Positions 4,992 to 49,400 of a stretch of 64,000 nucleotides of DNA are shown one piece after another. This stretch comes from Dictyostelium discoideum (taxonomy: Eukaryota): positions 2,752,001 to 2,816,000 of the forward strand of contig CM000153.2 in assembly GCA_000004695.1 (NCBI GenBank), written 5' to 3'. The notes beneath the pieces are model-generated. The model ran no database searches, was not told the origin of the DNA, and saw only the letters and a program-made list of their open reading frames with translations. Each line of letters opens with the position of its first letter. Within the stretch, counting starts at the first letter, position 1. A program made the translations under genes and the position numbers.

Positions 4992-5418
4992 AAATTTTTA
5001 AAAAAAAAAAAAACAGAATGTCGGGTGATAATAATGATTTAAAAAATTATAGTTATACTTACAGCAAATCTAAGTAATAAACATGATTTACCAACACCAC
5101 TATCACCAATTAAAAGAATTTTAAAGAAAAAATCGCTATAAGTTTATATATTTTTTTAAAGAAAAAAAAAAAGAGAGTTAGTTTATTTTTTTTTTTTTTT
5201 TTGAAAATTTTATGAAAAAAAAAGTCGATCGTTTTGATTTTTTAACAATATTTTATTTTTGTACACACTAATCCAAATTTTATTTTTATAAAAATAAAAA
5301 AAAAAAAAAAAAAGTAAAGTTTTATAAAAAAATAATAAAAAAGATTAAAAATAAAAATAAAAAAAAATTATTCCATTTGGATACTTACTGTTCTGGTGCC
5401 ATAGACATTTTATATGTG
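4032..5418 (-). CDS. Rab1-family small GTPase, 5 exons: complement(join(4032..4229,4434..4661,4751..4846,5063..5135,5399..5418))
   Basis: Spliced translation: [180 protein letters not shown]...GGKKSFC*. The P-loop GDSGVGKS, switch [16 protein letters not shown] and NKxD motifs are all present. Every intron has GTAAGT/GTATGT at the 5' end and AG at the 3' end, and the phases are consistent. The track ORF 3983..4225 (-) is a wrong-frame artefact overlapping the last exon. Confidence 0.85.
4305..4390. repeat. (ATT)n microsatellite of about 29 units inside the Rab1-like gene intron
   Basis: Perfect trinucleotide repeat read directly from the sequence. Confidence 0.9.
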
Positions 5419-6267: not shown

Positions 6268-6385
6268 TAAAATAAACAAAAAAATTGGGATTCTTTGTTT
6301 TCATTTATTTATTTTTTTAGTTCATCTTTTTTTTTTTTAAAATTATCCAAATAAATATATAAATGTTAAAAGTTGAAAAAAAAAA

Positions 6386-6430
<45 letters not shown>

Positions 6431-6635: not shown

Positions 6636-9135
<2,500 letters not shown>

Positions 9136-10876: not shown

Positions 10877-12154
10877 TTATTTTCTTTTAAAAGTTGATGA
10901 AGATTTTTTAGAAGTTTTTGCAGAAGGTTTTGAAGGAGTTTTTGTAACTTTCTTTTTTTTATCATTTGGATCTTCTGGTTTTTTAATTACAGTTATAAAA
11001 GAGTCCATACGAGATTGAACACTTGTATTTTTAAATTTCTTTAATTTTTCAATACCTTGAGCGACTCTAACATCAGAGAAACCCATTTCTTCAACTAAAA
11101 ATTTATTTAAACCTTCAACATCTGGATCTTTCCATTGAAAAGGTGGTAATTGATCAGCTGGAATAACATTTGGATTTTTAAATAATTCTCTCACCTCTGG
11201 GTATGGGAAAAACTCTGGTAATGGGTATTTGGATTTATCTAAATGTTTGATTACCTCCTCCAATGATTTATGTTTTTGAATTAACTCAATTGCTCTCTTT
11301 GGACCAATACCTTTGATACTATCACAATAATCACAACCTAAAAGAATGGAAAGATCAATAAACTCATCTTGAGTTAACCCTAAACCCTCCAATACTGATT
11401 GTAATTCAAATTCTAGAATTGGCATTTTCTTTGCTTCTGAAAAGAAAAGACGTCTAAGTAGTACTGTTGAACCTAATGTCAAAGAATCCATATCCTCTGA
11501 CCCGGTTGCCCATGCTTTACCCTTCTTTACAATCTCTGCACATTGCGCTTCTGCCTCACATGGTGCCTTTACAATTGGTACACCCATTAATGTTAAAAGT
11601 TTTATACAATCTTCATTTTGTTTACGTGTAACTGTAATAACACGTTTTGCAAATTTCTGAACCTCTTCATTGGTACCAACCTCTGTTGCTTCCTTTAAAT
11701 TCTCTTTTGCTTCTTTTCTTCTTGCTTGTCTTTTTGCTAATTCACCACTCTTTAATACTGGTGCACTACCATCAAATACATAAATTGGTTTAATACCTCT
11801 TGAAATTAATTTAATTGTACGATAAAACATACCTTGTAAATGACTAAATAAAAAAAAAAATAAAAAAATAAAAAATTTTAATATTTTATTATTTTATTAT
11901 TTTATTAATTATTAATTATTAATTATTAATTATTAATTATTATTTATTTTTATTTTATTTTTTTACCTTGTAGTTTCACCAAGTTGATTTGTTAATGCCG
12001 AAGAAACATCAGCATTCATTGCAATAAGAAATTGATATAAACTTGTTGATGCATCAATTGCAATAATTCTACCAAAATAGTTTTTTAATATATTTGTTTT
12101 AATTGAAGTTGGTGCATTATCTTCAATTAAATCTGTTAATTTTTTAATTCCCAT
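10877..12154 (-). CDS. repG: Flap endonuclease 1 (FEN1), 2 exons: complement(join(10877..11843,11967..12154))
   Basis: Exon 1: [62 protein letters not shown]. After the splice: [40 protein letters not shown]...[20 protein letters not shown].... This is collinear with eukaryotic FEN1 (MGI.GL..LI.D.AP.....Y.GR..AIDASMS.YQFL, the XPG-N/XPG-I domains, and a basic C-terminal tail). The donor is AG|GTAAAA and the acceptor is TTTAG. The gene symbol repG (Dictyostelium FEN1) is given from memory and not verified. Confidence 0.9.
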
Positions 12155-12740
12155 TTTCTCTTTTTTATGAATACAGAAATAATATAATTGATAAAAAAAA
12201 AAAAAAAAAAAAAAATTTTTTAAAGAAAAAAAATAAAAAAAGAAAGGTGTGAAAAAAAATTTTAAAAAAAAAAAGCGGGATATAAAAAAATTCTAATATT
12301 TATTATTTTTTTTAAAAGTTTGAATTTTTTGGGAAATTGTTTAATTATTATTTTATTTTTTAATTTTTTTTTTTTTTAAAATATTATTTACTTATCAGAT
12401 TTTAATAGATCTATTTACCATTTTTTCCAAAATTTAATTCCCTTTTAAAAAAAACCAATTGATTTATTTTTGTCAATTGTAATATTTGGGTCTTGTTTGA
12501 AAGATAAAAAATTCTATTTTTAAACCAAACCATTTTATAATTTACAAATCAATACCAAATTATTTATGAATAATTTCTATAATCTTCATTAATAAAAAAT
12601 AAATAAAAAAAAATTATATCAAAATACCAATTTTTTGTTATTAGATATATTTGTTAATAAAATATCAATTTTTTAAGTGATTACCATAGTTTTTTGGATT
12701 TTAAAAACTCTTATTAGAAAAATCAATTCAATTTTCACAG

Positions 12741-15626: not shown

Positions 15627-15634
15627 TCCCATAA
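15627..15634 (+). promoter_or_regulatory. DUSE-like element (ATCCCATAA) about 60 nt upstream of the candidate SRP RNA start, followed by a TATA-like TTATAAAG at 15683-15690
   Basis: The Dictyostelium upstream sequence element consensus [AT]CCCA[CT]AA normally lies about 60 nt upstream of ncRNA genes. An exact match is read here. Confidence 0.5.
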
Positions 15635-15690: not shown

Positions 15691-15975
15691 ATGCAGGATT
15701 GGGTAGCGGCAACCTGTAATCAAGCGATGCATTCGAGGCGAGGACGAGAGCATTGTTAGGACCTTTGGGACAAGCGACGCATACAGTTGATCCACACTAA
15801 CGTTGGTGTCGACATACTATCAGTCTCTAAGGATTGAAAGTAAGTTGATAATGACCAAGTCAAGGTCCAGGCTGGCAACAGAGCAGACAGAGCGAGGCAC
15901 ATCGATGGGTAGCGAGGAAAGTCGACTTAAAGTCGTCCAAAGGAAATAACAATGTAAACTCGAACAAACCTTTTT
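15691..15975 (+). ncRNA. Candidate signal recognition particle RNA (7SL/SRP RNA), about 285 nt, ending in a T14 run
   Basis: This is a GC-normal island in AT-rich DNA with no ORF. The 5' part GGGUAGCGGCAACCUGUAAUCAAGCGAUGCAUUCGAGGCGAGGACGAG resembles the SRP Alu domain (GCCUGUAAUCCCAGC...GGGAGGCNGAGG). The 3' part CAGGCUGGCAACAGAGCAGACAGAGCGAGGCAC resembles the helix-5 return strand of metazoan 7SL (CAGCCUGGGCAACAUAGCGAGACCCC). A Pol III-type T-run terminator sits at 15971-15984. The exact ends are uncertain. Confidence 0.55.
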
Positions 15976-22997: not shown

Positions 22998-23512
22998 AGG
23001 GGAACTAAACTTTAGGAATAAGGATGGCTTAAATAAAAAAAAGTCAAATCCCTATACAAATACAACTTTGATTTATATTTATCGATGGATCTAAAAAAAT
23101 TATGATTTTGGGCCCTTTTTTTAAAATTTTTGGATTTTATGGGTATTAATTAATTTATTTTATTTTATTATTAATATTTTTATTTAAATAAAAAAAAAAA
23201 AAAAAAAATTTGAAAAAAATTAAAAAAAAAAAAATTAAAAAAAATTAAAAAAAAAATAATTTTAAAATTTCAAAAAAAAATAAAAAAATTTAAAAAAAAA
23301 AAAAAAAATTTCAAAAAAAAAAAAAATTTTTTACTAAATAAAAAAAAAAATAAAAAAAAATAAAAAAAAATAAAAAAAAAAATAAATATTAACAGCAAAA
23401 AAAGTTTCAGTTAAAAAATTCAAAAATTTTTTTTTTTTTTTACCGTGTGTTTTATTACTTTTTTTTTTTTGAACATTTATTAAAATATGAGTTTAGTTTT
23501 TTTTTTAAAAAA

Positions 23513-23826: not shown

Positions 23827-24929
23827 TATTTTTTTGTTATTTAGTATCAGTTAGAGATTAATCTGAATTGAGTTGTAGTTGATTTTTTTTAAATTTCAAC
23901 TATCCGATGTATCTAACTTCATTGATTTTATACGCAGCCAAGTTTTCCCAACCTTTGTCATACTGACTCGACCTTTACATTTTCCGACCTTTCGGCAAGT
24001 TGATGAATTGGTTTCTTTGTCGTTTTTTAGTATGAGCTTAGACTATTTCTGTTACCTGACCATTACATTGTTTGTAATTTCCCCCCTAGAGATTTTCGCG
24101 TACTCAGACCTTCCCATATTATTCTCTCTTTATGATTTTAAAAATTTGTGAGAGATTCCTTTTTTTAATGATTGCCATTTGTTGAATATTACATTGGTTT
24201 CAAACCAATACCAAATAATCAAAATAAAATACCCCATTGACATTTGATTTTGTGATGACTTTTGTGGAAATTTTTCAAAAACGTAAAAAATTTTATGGGA
24301 ACAATCAATTTTTTTTTTTTTTTTTTACTAAAATAAAAAAAAATAAAAAAAATAAAAAAAATATTTTTTAAAAAAGTGTGGAGATGATTATGGTGAAGTT
24401 ATTTAACAGTTTTTATATTGGTTGGTGCAATGATAAGTGATTAAAAAGAATTTGGTAAAAAAGTTATTAATGAATCTTTTTTTTTCAAAATAAAAGAATA
24501 AAAAAAAAAAAAAAAAGAAATTAAATTTTTTTTGAATTGGAAAAAAAAGAAATTAAATAATTATTGAAATAATAAAAATAATAATAATAATAATAAAATT
24601 AAATAATAAAATTAATGTATATTTTTTTTTCCCTATTTAATCTTTGAAATATCAAATAAACAAACAAGTTTTTGTATATAAAATATCTATTTATCTATTG
24701 TTTTTATTATTTTCTTTTATTACCAAATCAATTTTATTTTTTTAATTTTTTTATTATTTTTTTATTTTACAAGATATAATTTTGAATCTATAAATAAATT
24801 AATTGTTTTAAAATTATTTTATAAATGTAAATTTGAAAAAAAAGAATTAAAAAGAGTTTTTGAAAAATGCCCAATTGATGAATTAAAATTTAAAATTAAA
24901 GATTTAAAAAATTCATGTATTTCAATTAT

Positions 24930-38282: not shown

Positions 38283-39622
38283 TCATTTTAATGGTTCTGG
38301 ATTATTAAAATGTGTTTGAAATCTATTAATTAATAAATTATTTGATTTTAATATTCTTGATATAAATGAACCAAAATTTAAATTTGAATTAATTTGAGTT
38401 AAACCATCTTTTGGACCTAGTGATAGACTAATGATTGGTGGTAATAATTTATGTTTTGCAAGTTGGTTTTTATTTTTACCATTTGATAAATCTTTTATAA
38501 CTTTAGCTACTATATTCCCATGTGAAAGTGCATTGTATGTGGTTTTAAGTTCATCAAAATCTGTAATATCACCAATTGCAAATATATTATCGTATCCTTG
38601 AACTTGACAACTTTGATTAACTTTAATTTGACCAATTTCATTAATTTCATTTGAAAAATTAGTTTTATAAGATTCACTATTTAATTTAATACCAATTGTC
38701 CAAATTACAAAATCAGATTCAATTGATAACCCATTTTTAGTTTTATATGTTTTTAATGAAACTTGAAAATTTGGTGATGTTTGATTAATAAAACATTGTT
38801 TTATATCATCTGGAATTTCAATTCTATCATTTAATATAACTGAAACGTTTCTTTTTTTCATAGATTCATTAATTAAATTATTGAATTTATTATTTGTTTT
38901 GGATGATACTAATTTATTACCACTATGAACAATCGTAATTTTCTTTGCCAATTCTTTGTTTTTAATTGGATATTTATTAATAATTTCTCCAACAACTTCA
39001 CAACCTACTGAACCACCCCCAACTATTAATATACTTTTAGCTTGTTTAATTTGTTCTGATATGTCTTTATAGTAATTAAAAATTTCAGTACCTGATATTT
39101 TTTCTAATGGTGCTTTAAAAGGTGCCAATGAATTTGAACCAGTTGCAATTACTAAATAATCAAATGTTAATTCTTTACCATCTTCTAATTTTACAAGAGT
39201 TGGTGAAATTTCAATAACTGTACCATAAATAAATTTACCATTTTTCAATAGTTTATCATATGGTATATATATTTTTTTTGCCAATTCTGGTTCAACTATT
39301 GCTCTTATTGATGCAATACTATTAAAAAATGTTTGTTTTCTTTCAACAACAGTTACTTCAAAATTTGAATCTAATAATTTTGCAACTTGGCTACCTCCAA
39401 AACCACACCCAATTATTAAAACTCTTTTCTTTTCACAATCTCTTGTAATACTACTAAAATAATTAAAAATCTCTATTAATTTAATTAAAATAATATAAAA
39501 AAAAAAAAATTAATTATCTATTTTTTTTTTTTTTTTTTTTTTTTTTATTAATTAAAACAAATTAAATAATTTAAATATATTTTACTTTTTAAAGATTCTG
39601 AAATATTATAAAGGTAATTCAT
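38283..39622 (-). CDS. AIF/AMID (FSP1)-like FAD/NAD(P)-dependent oxidoreductase, paralog A, 2 exons: complement(join(38283..39472,39586..39622)), about 408 aa
   Basis: Exon 1 is ATGAATTACCTTTATAATATTTCAGAATCTTTAAAAA (MNYLYNISESLK), ending at donor A|GTAAAA in phase 1. Acceptor AATTAATAG joins exon 2: KIFNYFSSITRDCEKKRVLIIGCGFGGSQVAKLLDSNFEVTVVERKQTFFNSIASIRAIVEPELAKKIYIPYDKLLKNGKFIYGTVIEISPTLVKLEDGKELTFDYLVIATGS...ILIVGGGSVGCEVVGEI...FAIGDITD.... This contains two GxGxxG Rossmann motifs and is roughly 65% identical to the downstream paralog 42340..43503. The track ORF begins at an internal TTG. An in-frame upstream stop at 39510-39512 forces the intron model. Confidence 0.7.
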
Positions 39623-40018
39623 TTTTTAATAAAAATGAATTATATAAAATAAATTTATATAAACTATTTAGGATTATGATGTGTTGGAATAAAGATTAAG
39701 ATTAAGATTGATATTTTTTTTTTTTTTTTTTTTTTTTATAAATGGCATTTAAACATTTTAACAAGCAAGAATTACGAAATTAAATTAAAAATAATTTTTT
39801 TTTTTTTTTCATTATACCAAAGGGTGTTGCCAAATCAGAATTATGAAACCAAAAAAAAAAAAAAAATCTTAAAAAATTGTAAAAAAATGCATTCCATTTT
39901 AGAAGAGAAGAATAGAATTTTCTATTTGATTTTTTTTTTCCTTTTATTGATAATGGATTATTGTTTTTAATAATTATCTTATGAAAGATTGATTCTTAAA
40001 AAAGTTTTTTTTTTTTTT

Positions 40019-40146
40019 TATTCACCTGTTAAAACAATTTAATTTTACACAAAAAAAAAAAAAACTGGGCTAACTTTTTAATTTTTTTTTTTTTTTTTTT
40101 TATTCACCTGTTAAAACAATTTAATTTTACACAAAAAAAAAAAATA
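40019..40146. repeat. 47-nt direct duplication ttattcacctgttaaaacaatttaattttacacaaaaaaaaaaa (40019-40065 and 40099-40145)
   Basis: Two near-identical copies separated by about 35 nt, immediately upstream (in plus orientation) of the ncRNA cluster. Confidence 0.6.
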
Positions 40147-40175
40147 TTTCCTTTGGGCTTGTTCCATAAAATCAA

Positions 40176-40239
40176 AAGGACAGTTGACGAAGTTTTTCTT
40201 TGAATGTAAGGAAATGTTAGATTTGCTGTAAGGTCAACT
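40176..40239 (-). ncRNA. Class I RNA gene (Dictyostelium Class I ncRNA, about 64 nt)
   Basis: The minus-strand transcript is AAGUUGACCUUACAGCAAAUCUAACAUUUCCUUACAUUCAAAGAAAAACUUCGUCAACUGUCCUUUU. The 5' GUUGAC pairs with the 3' GUCAAC, and the conserved 11-nt Class I motif CCUUACAGCAA follows the 5' stem strand directly. A short T-run lies at the 3' end. A DUSE-like ACCCAAAA sits about 90 nt upstream (plus 40327-40334, reverse-complemented). Confidence 0.65.
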
Positions 40240-40434
40240 TATAATGTGATTACTTTTATATTTTTCACATTTTAGTTTTAATAACAAAAAATATAAAATT
40301 GAAAACATAAAAATAAAAAATAGGATTTTGGGTTCCACTTTGTTCTCATTAAATAAAAAATTTGTTTCTTTTTTTTTTTTTTTCAATTTTTTTTTTAAAT
40401 TTTTTTTTTAAAATTTTTTCATTTTTTCCCGAAA

Positions 40435-40442
40435 ACCCATAA
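40435..40442 (+). promoter_or_regulatory. DUSE (ACCCATAA) about 60 nt upstream of the 40497 ncRNA gene
   Basis: Exact match to [AT]CCCA[CT]AA at the canonical distance. Confidence 0.5.
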
Positions 40443-40496
40443 AAAGTTTTTATCAACCAAAAACTCCATTTTTAATTGAAATTCTAACATATGTTT

Positions 40497-40755
40497 AATG
40501 GGCATATCAGGACATCGAGTTTAACACCTATTCAGACTCCAGAATACAAATTAATTTGAGCGGCAACGTTCTTATCAATCTGCAATACTCATATCATCTT
40601 AGAGGAATGATTGAAAAATCATAATTCTGATGGAGTACAAAAAATGCTGAGAAGTAACAGCATTAAAATAAACATTTAGACTATAGTTGTGAGTCTTAAA
40701 TTCCAACCAGTCAGTAGTGGCTAAAAATCTACAAAACATAAACTCGATCTGATAA
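40497..40755 (+). ncRNA. Unidentified ~260-nt non-coding RNA gene (GC-normal, DUSE-like upstream element, T-run terminator); box C/D-like motifs, possibly a U3-like snoRNA
   Basis: There is no ORF. A DUSE-like element lies at about -60. Transcription would end at the T-run TTTTTTATTTTTTTT (40756-40771). It contains UGAUGG and GCUGAGAAG motifs and a terminal CUGA about 10 nt from the 3' end. Its first ~110 nt recur as an inverted copy at 41221-41332. Confidence 0.45.
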
Positions 40756-41149
40756 CTGAAATGTCTTTTTTATTTTTTTTTTATTTTTTTTTTTTAATAA
40801 TGATTACAGTAATGATGTGACAACATCCCTATTTATAAAAACAAAAACAGTATTATATACAACAGATCACCTGTCCTCCCAATAAAAGAAGTTTAAAAAA
40901 AAAAAAAAAAATTATTATAACTATAAACAACATTCGATAGAATATAAAATAATAGTAAATTTGGGTATAAATAACAATAATAATAAATAATATTTACATC
41001 AAATTTAATATTTATTTATTAATTATTAATTAATGTTTATTTTAATATTTAAGCTATTAAAAAAAAAAATAAAAAAATAAAAGAAAAAAAATTATTTAAT
41101 TATTATTTTTTTTTTAAACACTGATTAATCAATGGATATGTGAATAATA

Positions 41150-41332
41150 AAAATAAAATAAATTTGTCAAATGAGATTATGTTCGGAGCACTGAATCTGG
41201 AATACAGTAAAGTTTGCACCTAATTCCTCTGACGATAGAGGAGTGCAGATTGATAAGAATGTTGCTCAAATTAATTTGTATTCTGGAGTCTGAATAGGTG
41301 TTAAACTCGATGTCTTGATATGCCCATTTTAA
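41150..41332 (-). ncRNA. Inverted partial paralog (pseudogene?) of the 40497 ncRNA gene; the first ~110 nt are about 95% identical, then diverge
   Basis: The reverse complement of 41221-41332 aligns with 40497-40607 (atgggcatatca[g/a]gacatcgagtttaacacctattcagactccagaatacaaattaatttgagc...ttatcaatctgca). There is no DUSE at -60. A T-rich stretch lies at the minus-strand 3' side. Confidence 0.4.
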
Positions 41333-41526
41333 GTATATTTAAAATTAATTTGTTAGTTATCTTATAATTTGATTAACTTTTTATGTGTGTTTAAAAAAAA
41401 AAAAAAAAAGAAGAGAATAAAAAAAAGTTAAATTTTGTTTAACAATCAATCCCAAAAATTATTTTTTGGTTTTTAAATTCTGAAAAAAAACAAATTTTAA
41501 TTTTATTTTAAAATGTGAAAACAATT

Positions 41527-41583
41527 AAGTTGACCTTTAAGCAACTTTCTACATTCAAAGAAATCCTTCACCAACTGTCTTTT
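41527..41583 (+). ncRNA. Class I RNA-like gene (variant motif CCUUUAAGCAA; possibly a degenerate paralog)
   Basis: AAGUUGACCUUUAAGCAACUUUCUACAUUCAAAGAAAUCCUUCACCAACUGUCUUUUUUUU. It shares the 5' AAGUUGACC and the 3' AACUGUC+T-run with the two canonical Class I genes nearby. A DUSE-like TCCCAAAA lies at 41450-41457. Confidence 0.5.
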
Positions 41584-41774
41584 TTTTAATTTTATATTAT
41601 TTTTTTTTTTTATTTTTTTTTTTATTAATAACTTTTCCTTTCCATCATCTAATTTTTTGATTTACTTAATGTAAATTTGTGATTCTTGAAGGAAAAAATA
41701 GGATTTTTGGTTATTTAAAAAAAAAAAAAAAAAATCTTAATTATTTTTTTGATAATTTAATAAGAAAATAAAAA

Positions 41775-41814
<40 letters not shown>

Positions 41815-41820
41815 ATTCTG

Positions 41821-41828
41821 TCCCACAA
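41821..41828 (+). promoter_or_regulatory. DUSE (TCCCACAA) upstream of the Class I RNA gene at 41915
   Basis: Exact consensus match about 90 nt upstream of the mature 5' end. Confidence 0.45.
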
Positions 41829-41914
41829 AATTATTTTTTATATAATATTTTTTTAATAATTAATTTTTTAATTCTTTTTTTTAATGTGTAAAACATTTAA
41901 GTTAACACATAATT

Positions 41915-41980
41915 AAGTTGACCTTACAGCAAATCTTACAATTTCATCCTAAGAAAAAATACAGTCAACTGTCTTTTTTT
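41915..41980 (+). ncRNA. Class I RNA gene
   Basis: AAGUUGACCUUACAGCAAAUCUUACAAUUUCAUCCUAAGAAAAAAUACAGUCAACUGUCUUUUUUU. The terminal stem is perfect (GUUGAC/GUCAAC), the conserved motif CCUUACAGCAA is exact, and a T7 terminator follows. Confidence 0.65.
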
Positions 41981-42234
41981 AAATTTTTTTTTGGGATAAC
42001 CATTATTACCTCTCGTTTTAAAAACCAAAAAAAAATGATTTGGTTGGATTGTTGTATCTTTTTTTTTTTTTAATGTCAAATTTGTATTTTTAAATAAAAT
42101 TAAAAAAACAAATAAAATAATCCAAGATTTTAAATTAAAAATAATAAAAATAAAAAAATTAATAAAGGTAATTTAAATTTTATATTTCATAAACTCATTA
42201 ATCCTATTTTAAAATAAAGATATAGACAATTTTC

Positions 42235-42339: not shown

Positions 42340-43503
42340 TTATTGGATTAAAGGTTTTGGATTATTTAATTGAGAAATATAACGATCAATAAATAATGAT
42401 TTTGATTTTATCATTTTTGTAGCAAAAGAACCAAGACACATAGTTGGACTGATTTGAGTTATACCATCTTGAGGACCTAATGAAAGACTAAGTATTGGAC
42501 CTGATACTTTATGTTTTGCAAGCTTATCATTACTTTTACCTTTAGATAAAGCATCGATTGCTTTTGCTGCAATTGCAGCATGATAGCCAGCATTATATGC
42601 TGTTTTAAATTCATCAAAATCTGTACAATCACCAATAGCAAATACATTATTGTATCCTTGAACTTGACAGCTTAAATTTACTTTTAATTGTCCAGACTCA
42701 TTGATTACATTTGAGAAATGTGATTGATATGATTCACTATTTGTTTTAATACCAACTGTCCAAATTATTAAATCTGCTTGAATTGGTACACCCTTTTCAG
42801 TTGTATAATTTTGTGATGATATTTGAATATTTGGTGAAGTTTGATTTAAAAGGTTAGCTTTAATTTCATCTGGCATTGTAATTCTATCATTTAATATGAC
42901 TTCAACATTTCTCTTTTTCATTGCTTTTGAAACGACATTTGTAAATTTATCATTCATTTTTGGATTCACTAATTTACTACCACTGTGAACAATTGTAATT
43001 TTCTTTACCAATTCTGAATCTTTAACTGGATATTTCTCTACGATTTCCGATACCAATTCACAAGCAACTGCACCACCACCAACTATTAATATACTTTTAG
43101 CTTGTTTAATTTGTTGTGAAAAGTTTTGGAAATAATTTAAAATCTCACTACTACTTTTCTTTTCTAATGGTGCTTTAAATGGTGCCAATGAATTTGAACC
43201 AGTTGCAATTACTAAATAATCAAATGTTAATTCTTGACCATCTTCTAATTTTGCAAGAGTTGGTGAAATTTCAATAACCGTGCCAAAAATAAATTTACCA
43301 TTTTTCAATAGCTTATCATATGGTATATAAATCTTTTTAACTAATTCTGGTTCAACAACAGCTCTAACAGATCCAACACTATGGAAAAATGTTTGTTTTC
43401 TTTCAACTACAGTTACATTAAATTTTGAATCTAATTGTTTTGCAACTTCACAACCACCATAACCACCACCAATTATTAATACTCTTTTCTTTTCTGATGT
43501 CAT
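42340..43503 (-). CDS. AIF/AMID (FSP1)-like FAD/NAD(P)-dependent oxidoreductase, paralog B, single exon, 387 aa
   Basis: MTSEKKRVLIIGGGYGGCEVAKQL... has an N-terminal GxGxxG motif. A second dinucleotide-binding motif (ILIVGGGAVACELVSEI) and the C-terminal FAIGDCTD motif are typical of the AIF/AIFM2/NDH-2 family. It is strongly similar to paralog A at 38283..39622, which lies in the same orientation. Confidence 0.85.
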   Translation of the reverse strand: MTSEKKRVLIIGGGYGGCEVAKQLDSKFNVTVVERKQTFFHSVGSVRAVVEPELVKKIYIPYDKLLKNGKFIFGTVIEISPTLAKLEDGQELTFDYLVIATGSNSLAPFKAPLEKKSSSEILNYFQNFSQQIKQAKSILIVGGGAVACELVSEIVEKYPVKDSELVKKITIVHSGSKLVNPKMNDKFTNVVSKAMKKRNVEVILNDRITMPDEIKANLLNQTSPNIQISSQNYTTEKGVPIQADLIIWTVGIKTNSESYQSHFSNVINESGQLKVNLSCQVQGYNNVFAIGDCTDFDEFKTAYNAGYHAAIAAKAIDALSKGKSNDKLAKHKVSGPILSLSLGPQDGITQISPTMCLGSFATKMIKSKSLFIDRYISQLNNPKPLIQ

Positions 43504-47778: not shown

Positions 47779-49400
47779 CAATTGTTTCTTTGTTTTACGT
47801 TATTACCATTTGTCGTAATAATTTTTTTTTTTATTAACCAAAAATAAAAAAATAAAATAAAAAAAATATTGTGACAACTTGTTAATAATTCTCCTTACAG
47901 AAAGGTTTAGAGATATTTTAGTTTTTATTTCACATTTAAACAACAATAATAATAATAAAAAAACAGCATTTAGCACATCAACAAAAATTTTAGCATATTA
48001 TTTTTTTTAGCACAAAAATTTATTATTTTTTTTTTTTATTACTAAACAAAAAAAAAAAAAAAAAAAAAAAGGTAATTTTAAGACTAATATTAATTTAAAC
48101 TCTATTAAAATTTTTTTTCTATTCTTTTTTTCTTTTTTTTTTTCTTTTTCTTATTATATTAATTTAATTTGATTGAATTTTTTTTTTTTTTTTTTTTTTT
48201 TTTTTCCTTCAGACAAAATTGTCCATTTTATTTAAAAATTGGAGCATGTAGACATGGTGATCGATGTTCAAGATTACATAATAAACCAGTATTAAGCCAA
48301 ACTATATTATTACCAAATTTATATCAAAGTCCAATCTCAAAAAAAGCAATTGAAGCAGCAGGAGGTCAAGCACCAAACCTTTCAGATGCAGAATTACAAC
48401 AACATTTTGATGAATTTTATGAAGATATTTATGAAGGTCTTGCAAAGTATGGCCAAGTAGATCTTTTAAATGTATGTGCAAATTTAGGTGATCATTTAGT
48501 TGGTAATGTTTATGTTAAATATCAAAAAGAAGATGATGCAAATGAATCAATTAAGGGTTTAAAGGGTAGATTTTATGATGGTAAGTTTATAAATTTTTAT
48601 TTTATTTTATTAAAAAAAAAAAAAAAAAAAAAAAACCTACCACCTCATACATTTATATTAATATTTTTTTTATTTTTATTTAAATATTTTAAAGGTAGAC
48701 CAATTATTTCTGAATTTTCACCAGTAACAGATTTTACAGAAGCAAGATGCAGGCAGTACGATATAGGAACATGCAATCGTGGTGGATTTTGTAATTTTAT
48801 GCATTTACATAATCCATCAAAGTCATTGTACTATAAATTATTTGGCGATAGAAAGAGTAGAAGCCCAAGTCCAAAGAGAGATTACAGAGATAGAGATAGG
48901 GATTATGGTAGAAGAGGTTACGATAGAGACTATAGAGACAGAGACAGAGATAGAGACAGAGACTATGGAAGAAGAGGTGGTGGTGGCTATGATAGAGACT
49001 ACAGAGATAGAGATAGAGATTATGGTGGTGGCGGCGGTAGATATGACAGAGACTACAGAGATAGAGACAGAGATAGAGATGGCTATGGTAGATCACGTGA
49101 TTATGATCGTGACCGAGACCGTCGTCCATATGACGAGTTTAGAGGAAGTAGAGGCTCAAAATCACCAGAATACTCAAGAAATAGTGGGGGTGACATTCCA
49201 CCCTCTGATCATCACTTTAGTAGATCTCTACTTTTAACAGACTATGCCTATCCTCCACCAACCGGAGGTATTGTAAATGGTAGTCCATCCTCAAATCAAC
49301 CACCTCTTCACCTTCCTCCACCAACCAATGAATATTCACACATTTTACCAATTACAACTACACAATCACCACTCTCTACTGGCTCAAATGGTGGCTCACT

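Follow-up and report, generated by a model that had tools for sequence, protein, structure and literature searches.

A probable small non-coding RNA gene cluster with an inverted, decaying two-gene module between AIF-like paralogs of Dictyostelium discoideum

What occupies the 2-kb spacer between two AIF-like paralogs on chromosome 4 of Dictyostelium discoideum AX4, and how old is it compared with the two genes that enclose it? The stretch of DNA analysed here (DDB0232431, positions 2,752,001-2,816,000; 64 kb in all, hereafter the window, within which our coordinates are counted) has in this spacer three genes for Class I RNAs, one unit of ~270 nt, which we call unit A, and a decayed inverted copy of that unit, unit B; together they fill the spacer as a cluster of small-RNA genes. 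Class I RNAs occur only in dictyostelids, are plentiful in D. discoideum and have been connected with multicellular development, and the birth, duplication and loss of genes of their type are poorly known. [quoted passage not shown]

Three of the four genes of the cluster are already catalogued, and the fourth, unit A (40497..40771, + strand), matches no known family. It is a candidate orphan structured ncRNA gene of ~270 nt, put forward on account of its DUSE, its T6 end, its fold, its conservation and the lack of an Rfam family. A preliminary description of the window had proposed a separate unit running from a DUSE to a T run, and such a unit is indeed present: the DUSE consensus [AT]CCCA[CT]AA, on the same strand and ~60 nt upstream of the RNA start, occurs here as ACCCATAA at 40435..40442 (+), 62 nt upstream of 40497, and the unit ends in a T6 run at 40766-40771, which gives it a length of ~270 nt rather than the ~260 nt first proposed. 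The unit has a GC content of ~33% inside a spacer of 10-20% GC. Within it, the sense strand has no TTTT and five runs of four or more A, a weak sign, as 32% of shuffled sequences also lack TTTT. The AX4 unit is predicted to fold at -62.8 kcal/mol, with z scores of the minimum free energy of -4.25 and -4.47. In the predicted structure a terminal helix of ~20 bp joins the 5' and 3' ends (GGGCAU/AUGUCU, UCAG/CUGA and AUCGAGUUUA/UAAACUCGAU) and encloses several hairpins, one with a GNRA tetraloop and one that is variable. The 3' strand of one hairpin (40654-40665, GUAACAGCAUUAAAA) resembles a region of the Class I RNAs (CUUACAGCAAUUAAA) through a common ACAGCA core, probably by chance.

Syntenic loci for comparison were obtained from NCBI assemblies via the neighbouring AIF-like protein, and comprise D. 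dimigraforme (L001), D. citrinum (L002), two further assemblies of D. discoideum (L004 and L005) and two loci of D. cf. discoideum (L003 and L006). Four full-length copies of unit A are found, namely those of AX4, L004 (12068-12343), L005 (12188-12463) and L006 (6607-6881). Between AX4 and L004/L005 the 5' 87 nt of the unit are 99-100% identical and the 3' 134 nt 95.5-97%; the promoter, in which the DUSE and its flank are conserved, has 93.5-97% identity, DdR-32, a Class I gene taken for comparison, 92.7% and the flanking spacer 74-91%. The variable hairpin (40584-40636) is 77% identical, and a hairpin fold is predicted there in all four copies. Immediately past the T run, the similarity between AX4 and L004/L005 collapses. 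What these alignments show is a unit with gene-like boundaries, on which purifying selection is about as strong as on accepted ncRNA genes. A profile search with nhmmer over all obtained loci returned only the known copies of unit A, scans of metagenomes with exact unit A patterns (a 24-mer and an 18-mer) gave 0 matches and 41 chance matches, and a protein search for gene calls in other assemblies, using a spurious 46-aa antisense open reading frame (ORF), found nothing. The D. purpureum locus is not syntenic.

All four copies fold in the same architecture with z scores of -4.5 to -5.5 (-5.1 to -5.5 for L004, L005 and L006), and the substitutions among them are distributed unevenly over the predicted structure. 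Variable alignment columns make up 11 of 148 paired positions and 29 of 119 unpaired ones (Fisher p = 1.3e-4; four copies); outside the variable region the figures are 2 of 108 and 16 of 97 (p = 2.6e-4), and both of the paired-column changes there are wobble-compatible. The GNRA loop reads GCAA in AX4 and GAAA in L006. Within the folding model, a conserved and stable predicted fold of unit A is shown by these comparisons.

Several observations weigh against placing unit A among the genes of the cluster. The DUSE consensus by itself occurs at chance level in the window (12 found, 10 expected), so that the argument for unit A rests on the position of its DUSE and on conservation. No covariation is seen, with 0 pairs changed on both sides in a MAFFT alignment of four close sequences, a test that is uninformative because 66 of the 74 predicted pairs never vary among the four copies; one C-G to U-A change, at the variable hairpin's base, is visible only after re-alignment by eye. 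In addition, the sequences used for the test are those from which the tested structure had been predicted. No plus-strand DUSE lies upstream of the D. cf. discoideum copy (L006), and no homolog of unit A is found at the syntenic site of D. citrinum or D. dimigraforme.

The lack of a DUSE in D. cf. discoideum, together with the fact that transcription of unit A is predicted from sequence, leads to the alternative that the unit is a conserved element that is not transcribed, such as a relic or a block that regulates the adjacent genes. This we consider unlikely, since conservation stops at the DUSE on one side and at the T run on the other, all four copies have a fold of exceptional stability, substitutions avoid the predicted paired positions, and the strand asymmetry of T runs fits transcription of the plus strand.

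If unit A is, as we think, a gene for a structured RNA, it could be a very diverged member of a universal family of comparable size that RNA polymerase III transcribes in other eukaryotes (RNase MRP RNA, a 7SK-like RNA or a vault-type RNA), or else a telomerase RNA, and lie beyond the Rfam models. Its size of ~270 nt, its T-run end, its ends paired in the manner of helix P1 and its GNRA tetraloops would agree with this, as would the fact that the window also holds the genes for signal recognition particle (SRP) RNA and RNase P RNA. A GARAR loop is a feature of helix P8 of RNase MRP RNA, and the hairpin loop AGAAGUAA of unit A contains GAGAA, which resembles it. Nevertheless, Rfam gives no match to unit A at the gathering threshold over the whole window, at E<=10 over 2.4 kb, or at E<=10 for its 296 nt alone (RF00030 included), while the RNase P and SRP RNAs of the window are readily detected; for unit B, too, there is no match at the gathering threshold (whole window) or at E<=10 (2.4 kb). 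Unit A has no GAAAGUCC-type CR-I motif (GAAAGUCCCC-like) and no CR-V/P4 partner, and an MRP RNA of D. discoideum has already been published. Telomerase RNA was rejected because no C-rich or CU-rich segment could template the AG-rich dictyostelid repeats, the nearest, GACUCC, being GACACC in L006. Finally, at the syntenic site of the closest sister species there is no copy of the unit. A diverged universal RNA is accordingly an improbable explanation for unit A.

Unit A is also not a Class I RNA, as it is ~270 nt long and has neither the CCUUACAGCAA motif nor a match to the Class I model RF01414. A protein-coding reading was rejected, because there is no ORF of at least 60 aa and the only ATG in the start region is lost in L005, and hammerhead, Sm-site and U2-like readings were rejected after a check by eye of the four-sequence alignment, in which the defining motifs are not conserved. 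Unit A is absent from Rfam 15, a search of the full-text literature for its exact sequence gave 0 matches, and there is nothing at its coordinates in the accessible portions of the supplements to papers on long non-coding RNAs, small nucleolar RNAs (snoRNAs), Class I RNAs and DrnB or microRNAs (miRNAs). In 2008, Larsson et al. reportedly screened D. discoideum for GC-deviant segments with a DUSE, and unit A may already appear in an older ncRNA screen of this organism.

The remaining genes of the cluster are better known. Class I RNAs correspond to RF01414, the DdR-21 family, and have reportedly been covered by Aspegren in 2004, Avesson in 2011 and Kjellin in 2021. The preliminary description had named two canonical Class I genes with an exact 11-mer and a closing stem, and a third member with a diverged motif. 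This is borne out: DdR-56 (40181..40238, - strand, 58 nt) scores 55.5 bits and DdR-32 (41917..41971, + strand, 55 nt) 51.2 bits, both above the gathering threshold of 41.5 bits for RF01414, and the third, DdR-57 (41529..41577, + strand, 49 nt), is a degenerate Class I locus with the motif CCTTTAAGCAA and four of six stem pairs, which has no RF01414 match even at E<=10. The loci first proposed are thus real, with ends that were a few nucleotides off. All three are already in the catalogue of DdR genes published by Kjellin et al. (2021, PMC7919456), with which their sequences and coordinates agree exactly, and this places the window on chromosome 4 of AX4; the sequence of DdR-56 is identical to that of the published gene at chr4 2792179-2792238, and DdR-32 is likewise identical to its entry.

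The exact 11-mer, CCTTACAGCAA, has only two sites in the 64 kb, those of DdR-56 and DdR-32. With up to one mismatch it is matched five times against 0.27 expected, which argues against the motif being common in intergenic DNA. The three sites with one mismatch, at 5057, 7896 and 47893, have no flanking 5' and 3' stems and probably represent chance or coding sequence; a DUSE-like ACCCAAAA lies 200 nt upstream of the one at 47893. The 11-nt motif CCUUACAGCAA stands directly 3' of the 5' stem strand and is exact in DdR-56 and DdR-32, and the corresponding region of DdR-57, CCUUUAAGCAA, has two mismatches to it (the locus sequence reads GTTGACCTTTAAGCAA...). The closing stem GUUGAC/GUCAAC is present in DdR-56 and DdR-32; DdR-57 can pair GUUG/CAAC only.

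A DUSE or DUSE-like element lies 60-61 nt before a TGTG box at all three Class I loci. The promoter of DdR-56 (40266..40333, - strand) has a degenerate DUSE, ACCCAAAA, at 40326-40333 and the box AAATGTG at 40266-40272, 61 nt apart; that of DdR-57 (41450..41517, +) has the DUSE-like TCCCAAAA at 41450-41457 and a TGTG box at 41511-41517; and that of DdR-32 (41821..41888, +) has the DUSE TCCCACAA at 41821-41828 and TAATGTG at 41882-41888. The elements of DdR-56 and DdR-57 are of the weaker form CCCAAAA, and that of DdR-56, degenerate in AX4, is canonical in L004/L005 (TCCCATAA or TCCCACAA). In the tables of Kjellin et al., every locus is entered with its DUSE variant, with a TGTG box that follows the DUSE at 60 nt and with its reads in six RNA-seq libraries (PMC7919456). 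DdR-32, listed with TCCCACAA, has 52,000-88,000 reads per library, DdR-56, listed with ACCCAAAA, the box AAATGTG and a spacing of 60, has 223-377, and DdR-57, listed with TCCCAAAA, has 0 in all six libraries (PMC7919456). The degenerate DUSE of AX4 is consistent with the low published read counts of DdR-56, and DdR-57 is a catalogued but silent, degenerate locus. Across the Class I loci, the decay of the promoter element tracks the published levels of expression.

How are these genes related to one another? The preliminary description had noticed that the first 110 nt of unit A recur in inverted orientation at 41221..41332 and then diverge, forming a convergent pair of gene and pseudogene. This is confirmed by unit B (41223..41328, - strand), a decayed partial copy: nucleotides 1-112 of the unit are 90% identical to 41328-41223, a repeat finder gives arms of 88 nt at 88%, and beyond ~125 nt the two units have no significant similarity. 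The 3' part of unit B is unrelated to that of unit A; in place of the DUSE, unit B has the mutated ACACATAA (~41387-41394), and no stable fold is predicted for it (z -0.7 and -0.3). The extent of the copy had, however, been underestimated. By blastn, 40166-40608 aligns with the reverse complement of 41223-41595 (299 of 448 positions identical, E 3e-43), and the left arm of this inverted segmental duplication (40166..40608) holds DdR-56, its promoter, the promoter of the unit and the 5' 110 nt of the unit. The repeated block of ~440 bp, which had been missed beyond the 110 nt, therefore takes in the Class I genes DdR-56/DdR-57 with their DUSEs and TGTG boxes and, of the unit, the promoter and the first ~110 nt. 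Each module is a divergent pair, with a Class I gene pointing one way and a unit the other, and two inverted modules are present at the locus. On the side of unit B, DdR-57 is left without the motif and without part of the stem, and it is no longer expressed.

The other assemblies differ in which of the modules they hold. L004 and L005 lack the AX4 sequence from ~40860 to 41585, which includes unit B and DdR-57. At L004 ~11872-12055 and L005 ~11874-12175 the place of unit B, DdR-57 and ~440 bp of unique AX4 sequence is taken by an (ATT)n microsatellite; the tract is longer in L005, and the sequence found in AX4 only is that of window positions 40800-41220. L006 has one module, in which an intact Class I gene (6374-6429, 42 bits, with CCTTACAGCAA) stands beside the full-length unit, and the spacer of this module matches the B/DdR-57 side of AX4 at 80%, not the A/DdR-56 side. 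The two paralogous arms of AX4 are 67% identical, with many gaps, as against 79-83% for orthologous spacers. These comparisons show that the second arm has decayed and that some assemblies have it while others do not. We infer that the duplication is older than the separation of these lineages, each of which afterwards lost or degraded a different arm. Two further observations concern the same region. In L003 (~11800-11960), downstream of a third AIF-like gene, there is a second Class I-like gene with the motif CCTTACAACAA and an intact GTTGAC/GTCAAC stem, whose score is below the Rfam gathering threshold and whose flank is ~87% like the promoter region of DdR-57 over 75 nt. In L006 (8723-8975), the DdR-32 ortholog (8898-8954, 49.8 bits) has, relative to AX4, the reverse orientation and a place on the other side of the spacer, which implies further rearrangement within the cluster.

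Two arms that face each other could also be the terminal inverted repeats of a transposon similar to a miniature inverted-repeat transposable element (MITE), or form the hairpin of a small interfering RNA or miRNA locus, in which case there would be no discrete RNA gene of 270 nt. The length of the inverted repeat (88-112 nt), its 88-90% identity, the ~700 nt between the arms and their convergent layout speak for such an origin, but L004 and L005 are without arm B and yet retain the whole of unit A, strongly constrained, L006 has only one unit, a full-length one, the duplicated block reaches well past the unit into the Class I genes, and conservation spans all 270 nt and not only the 110 that are repeated. 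Nor do further copies of the arms, expected of a multi-copy MITE, occur in the window or the obtained loci, and the accessible portion of one supplementary file of a D. discoideum miRNA (DrnB) study has no entry at these coordinates. We therefore regard both forms of this explanation as very unlikely. The weakest candidate is a box C/D or H/ACA snoRNA, hinted at in the preliminary description because of C/D-like boxes (UGAUGG at 40630-40635 and CUGA at 40749-40752), and it has next to no credibility, since UGAUGG reads CUAAUGG in L006 and, instead of lying close to the 5' end as a C box (RUGAUGA) would, forms part of the variable hairpin's 3' strand, CUGA pairs within the predicted terminal helix and so permits no k-turn geometry, 270 nt is far above the known lengths of DdR box C/D snoRNAs, snoRNA families match unit A only as 11-bit antisense noise, and no ACA stands near the 3' end (none 3 nt from it).

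Returning to a cluster of DUSE-type genes, we can sketch how such a locus might work and how it might have arisen. Transcription of unit A would start ~62 nt downstream of its DUSE, near 40497, and stop at the T run, an end that suggests RNA polymerase III (Pol III) and a Pol III-like termination. The RNA is predicted to fold closed, with an end helix of ~20 bp around several hairpins, and would be a stable structured RNA, most likely a scaffold for a ribonucleoprotein (RNP). Among the Class I genes, DdR-56 has a weak promoter and low expression, DdR-32 is active and DdR-57 dead. The divergent pair of unit A and a Class I gene would have been duplicated in inverted orientation; in AX4 the arm of unit A and DdR-56 has an intact unit, and from the arm of unit B and DdR-57 the DUSE, the 3' half of the unit and the Class I motif are gone. 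In L004/L005 the B/DdR-57 arm is the missing one, with (ATT)n in its place, and in D. cf. discoideum it is the pair on the B side that is intact. More tentatively, we speculate that unit A founds a new family of structured RNAs of ~270 nt, possibly transcribed by Pol III and confined to the D. discoideum complex, which was born or captured beside a Class I gene and whose module is in turnover; we hold this as a possibility and would not call it probable. In a variant of this reading, a dictyostelid RNP that is already known, for instance the vault, could have unit A as its missing RNA subunit.

The position of the cluster between tandem paralogs had suggested that the RNA genes were co-duplicated with the AIF genes. 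This does not agree with the other species. The tandem AIF pair is also found in D. dimigraforme (L001) and D. citrinum (L002), with spacers of ~600 bp and ~390 bp, respectively, and these spacers contain no Class I gene and no unit, which implies that the AIF duplication is older than the RNA cluster. Judging from these sequences, the RNA genes either were inserted in the lineage of D. discoideum and D. cf. discoideum or were lost by the other species.

The genes on both sides of the spacer are, as first described, AIF-like FAD/NAD oxidoreductases; they are 68% identical. The first, in which Pyr_redox_2 is matched, is DDB_G0285003 (38283..39480, - strand), with a 3' exon ORF at 38283-39284, the product of which is identical to DDB_G0285003 in 332 of 333 residues, and a 5' end estimated at ~39480; the second (42340..43503, - strand) is an ORF of 387 aa in one exon. 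Between the first gene and the cluster there is a direct repeat (40005..40144), which had been given as a 47-nt duplication at 40019..40146. The repeat exists, and is really a perfect 58-mer (40005-40062 and 40087-40144, period 82, 100% identity). It is present in one copy in L004 and in L005 and in two in AX4, which points to a recent tandem duplication in the AX4 lineage.

Elsewhere in the window there are further RNA genes. An SRP RNA gene (RF01570, 320 bits) lies at 15691-15968 (+), with the canonical DUSE TCCCATAA at 15627, 64 nt upstream, and serves as a positive control for DUSE spacing within the window. Nuclear RNase P RNA is found by Rfam at 23846-24136 (-) with 62.6 bits; from a DUSE at 24300 the start would be expected near 24240, ~100 nt upstream of where the Rfam alignment begins, and the 5' end predicted in this way, AAUGGGG, resembles the start of unit A, AAUGGGC. 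At its edge, the D. cf. discoideum locus has the RNase P RNA gene as well (L006 21195-21503). At ~23030-23144 (-) a DUSE ACCCATAA (starting at 23144) is followed 60 nt on by a segment of ~45-50 nt, CGATAAATATAAATCAAAGTTGTATTTGTATAGGGATTTGAC, which ends in T8, is without an Rfam match and may be an unannotated small ncRNA. A scan of the window for tRNAs found no tRNA gene.

The locus is thus a compact natural experiment, in which very close lineages have one and the same module of two RNA genes in an intact, a decaying or a deleted state. If unit A is expressed, it adds a strongly structured RNA of middle size to a model organism, and if it indeed founds a new family, a young ncRNA gene would have been caught during its birth and turnover. 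Should unit A already be catalogued, the value of the locus shrinks to the evolutionary reconstruction.

Comparison with known systems helps to place unit A. With Class I RNAs it shares the DUSE promoter, the pairing of the 5' and 3' ends, a gene end of the form ...UGUC-U(n) and the intergenic clustering, here beside Class I genes themselves; it differs from them in its length (Class I RNAs have 42-65 nt, unit A ~270 nt), in its several hairpins and in having neither CCUUACAGCAA nor a TGTG box. The genes for SRP RNA, RNase P RNA and the U small nuclear RNAs (snRNAs) resemble it in a DUSE ~60 nt upstream and in a GC content well above the intergenic background, and the predicted start of RNase P RNA has AAUGGG in common with it, but unit A matches none of them in sequence or structure. 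RNase MRP RNA is similar in size, closing helix and T-run end, with a GARAR-like loop in unit A, which differs in having no CR-I or CR-V, no P4 pseudoknot and no covariance-model match. In gene arrangement there is a likeness with the snRNA gene pairs and Class I clusters of D. discoideum, which, as far as they are described where PMC7919456 cites them (Hinas and Soderbom 2007), arise by local duplication and form close, often inverted pairs, as is the case here. Unlike in those pairs and clusters, the duplicated module in this spacer is made of two unrelated RNA genes, one arm of it is decaying, and some strains have that arm and others lack it.

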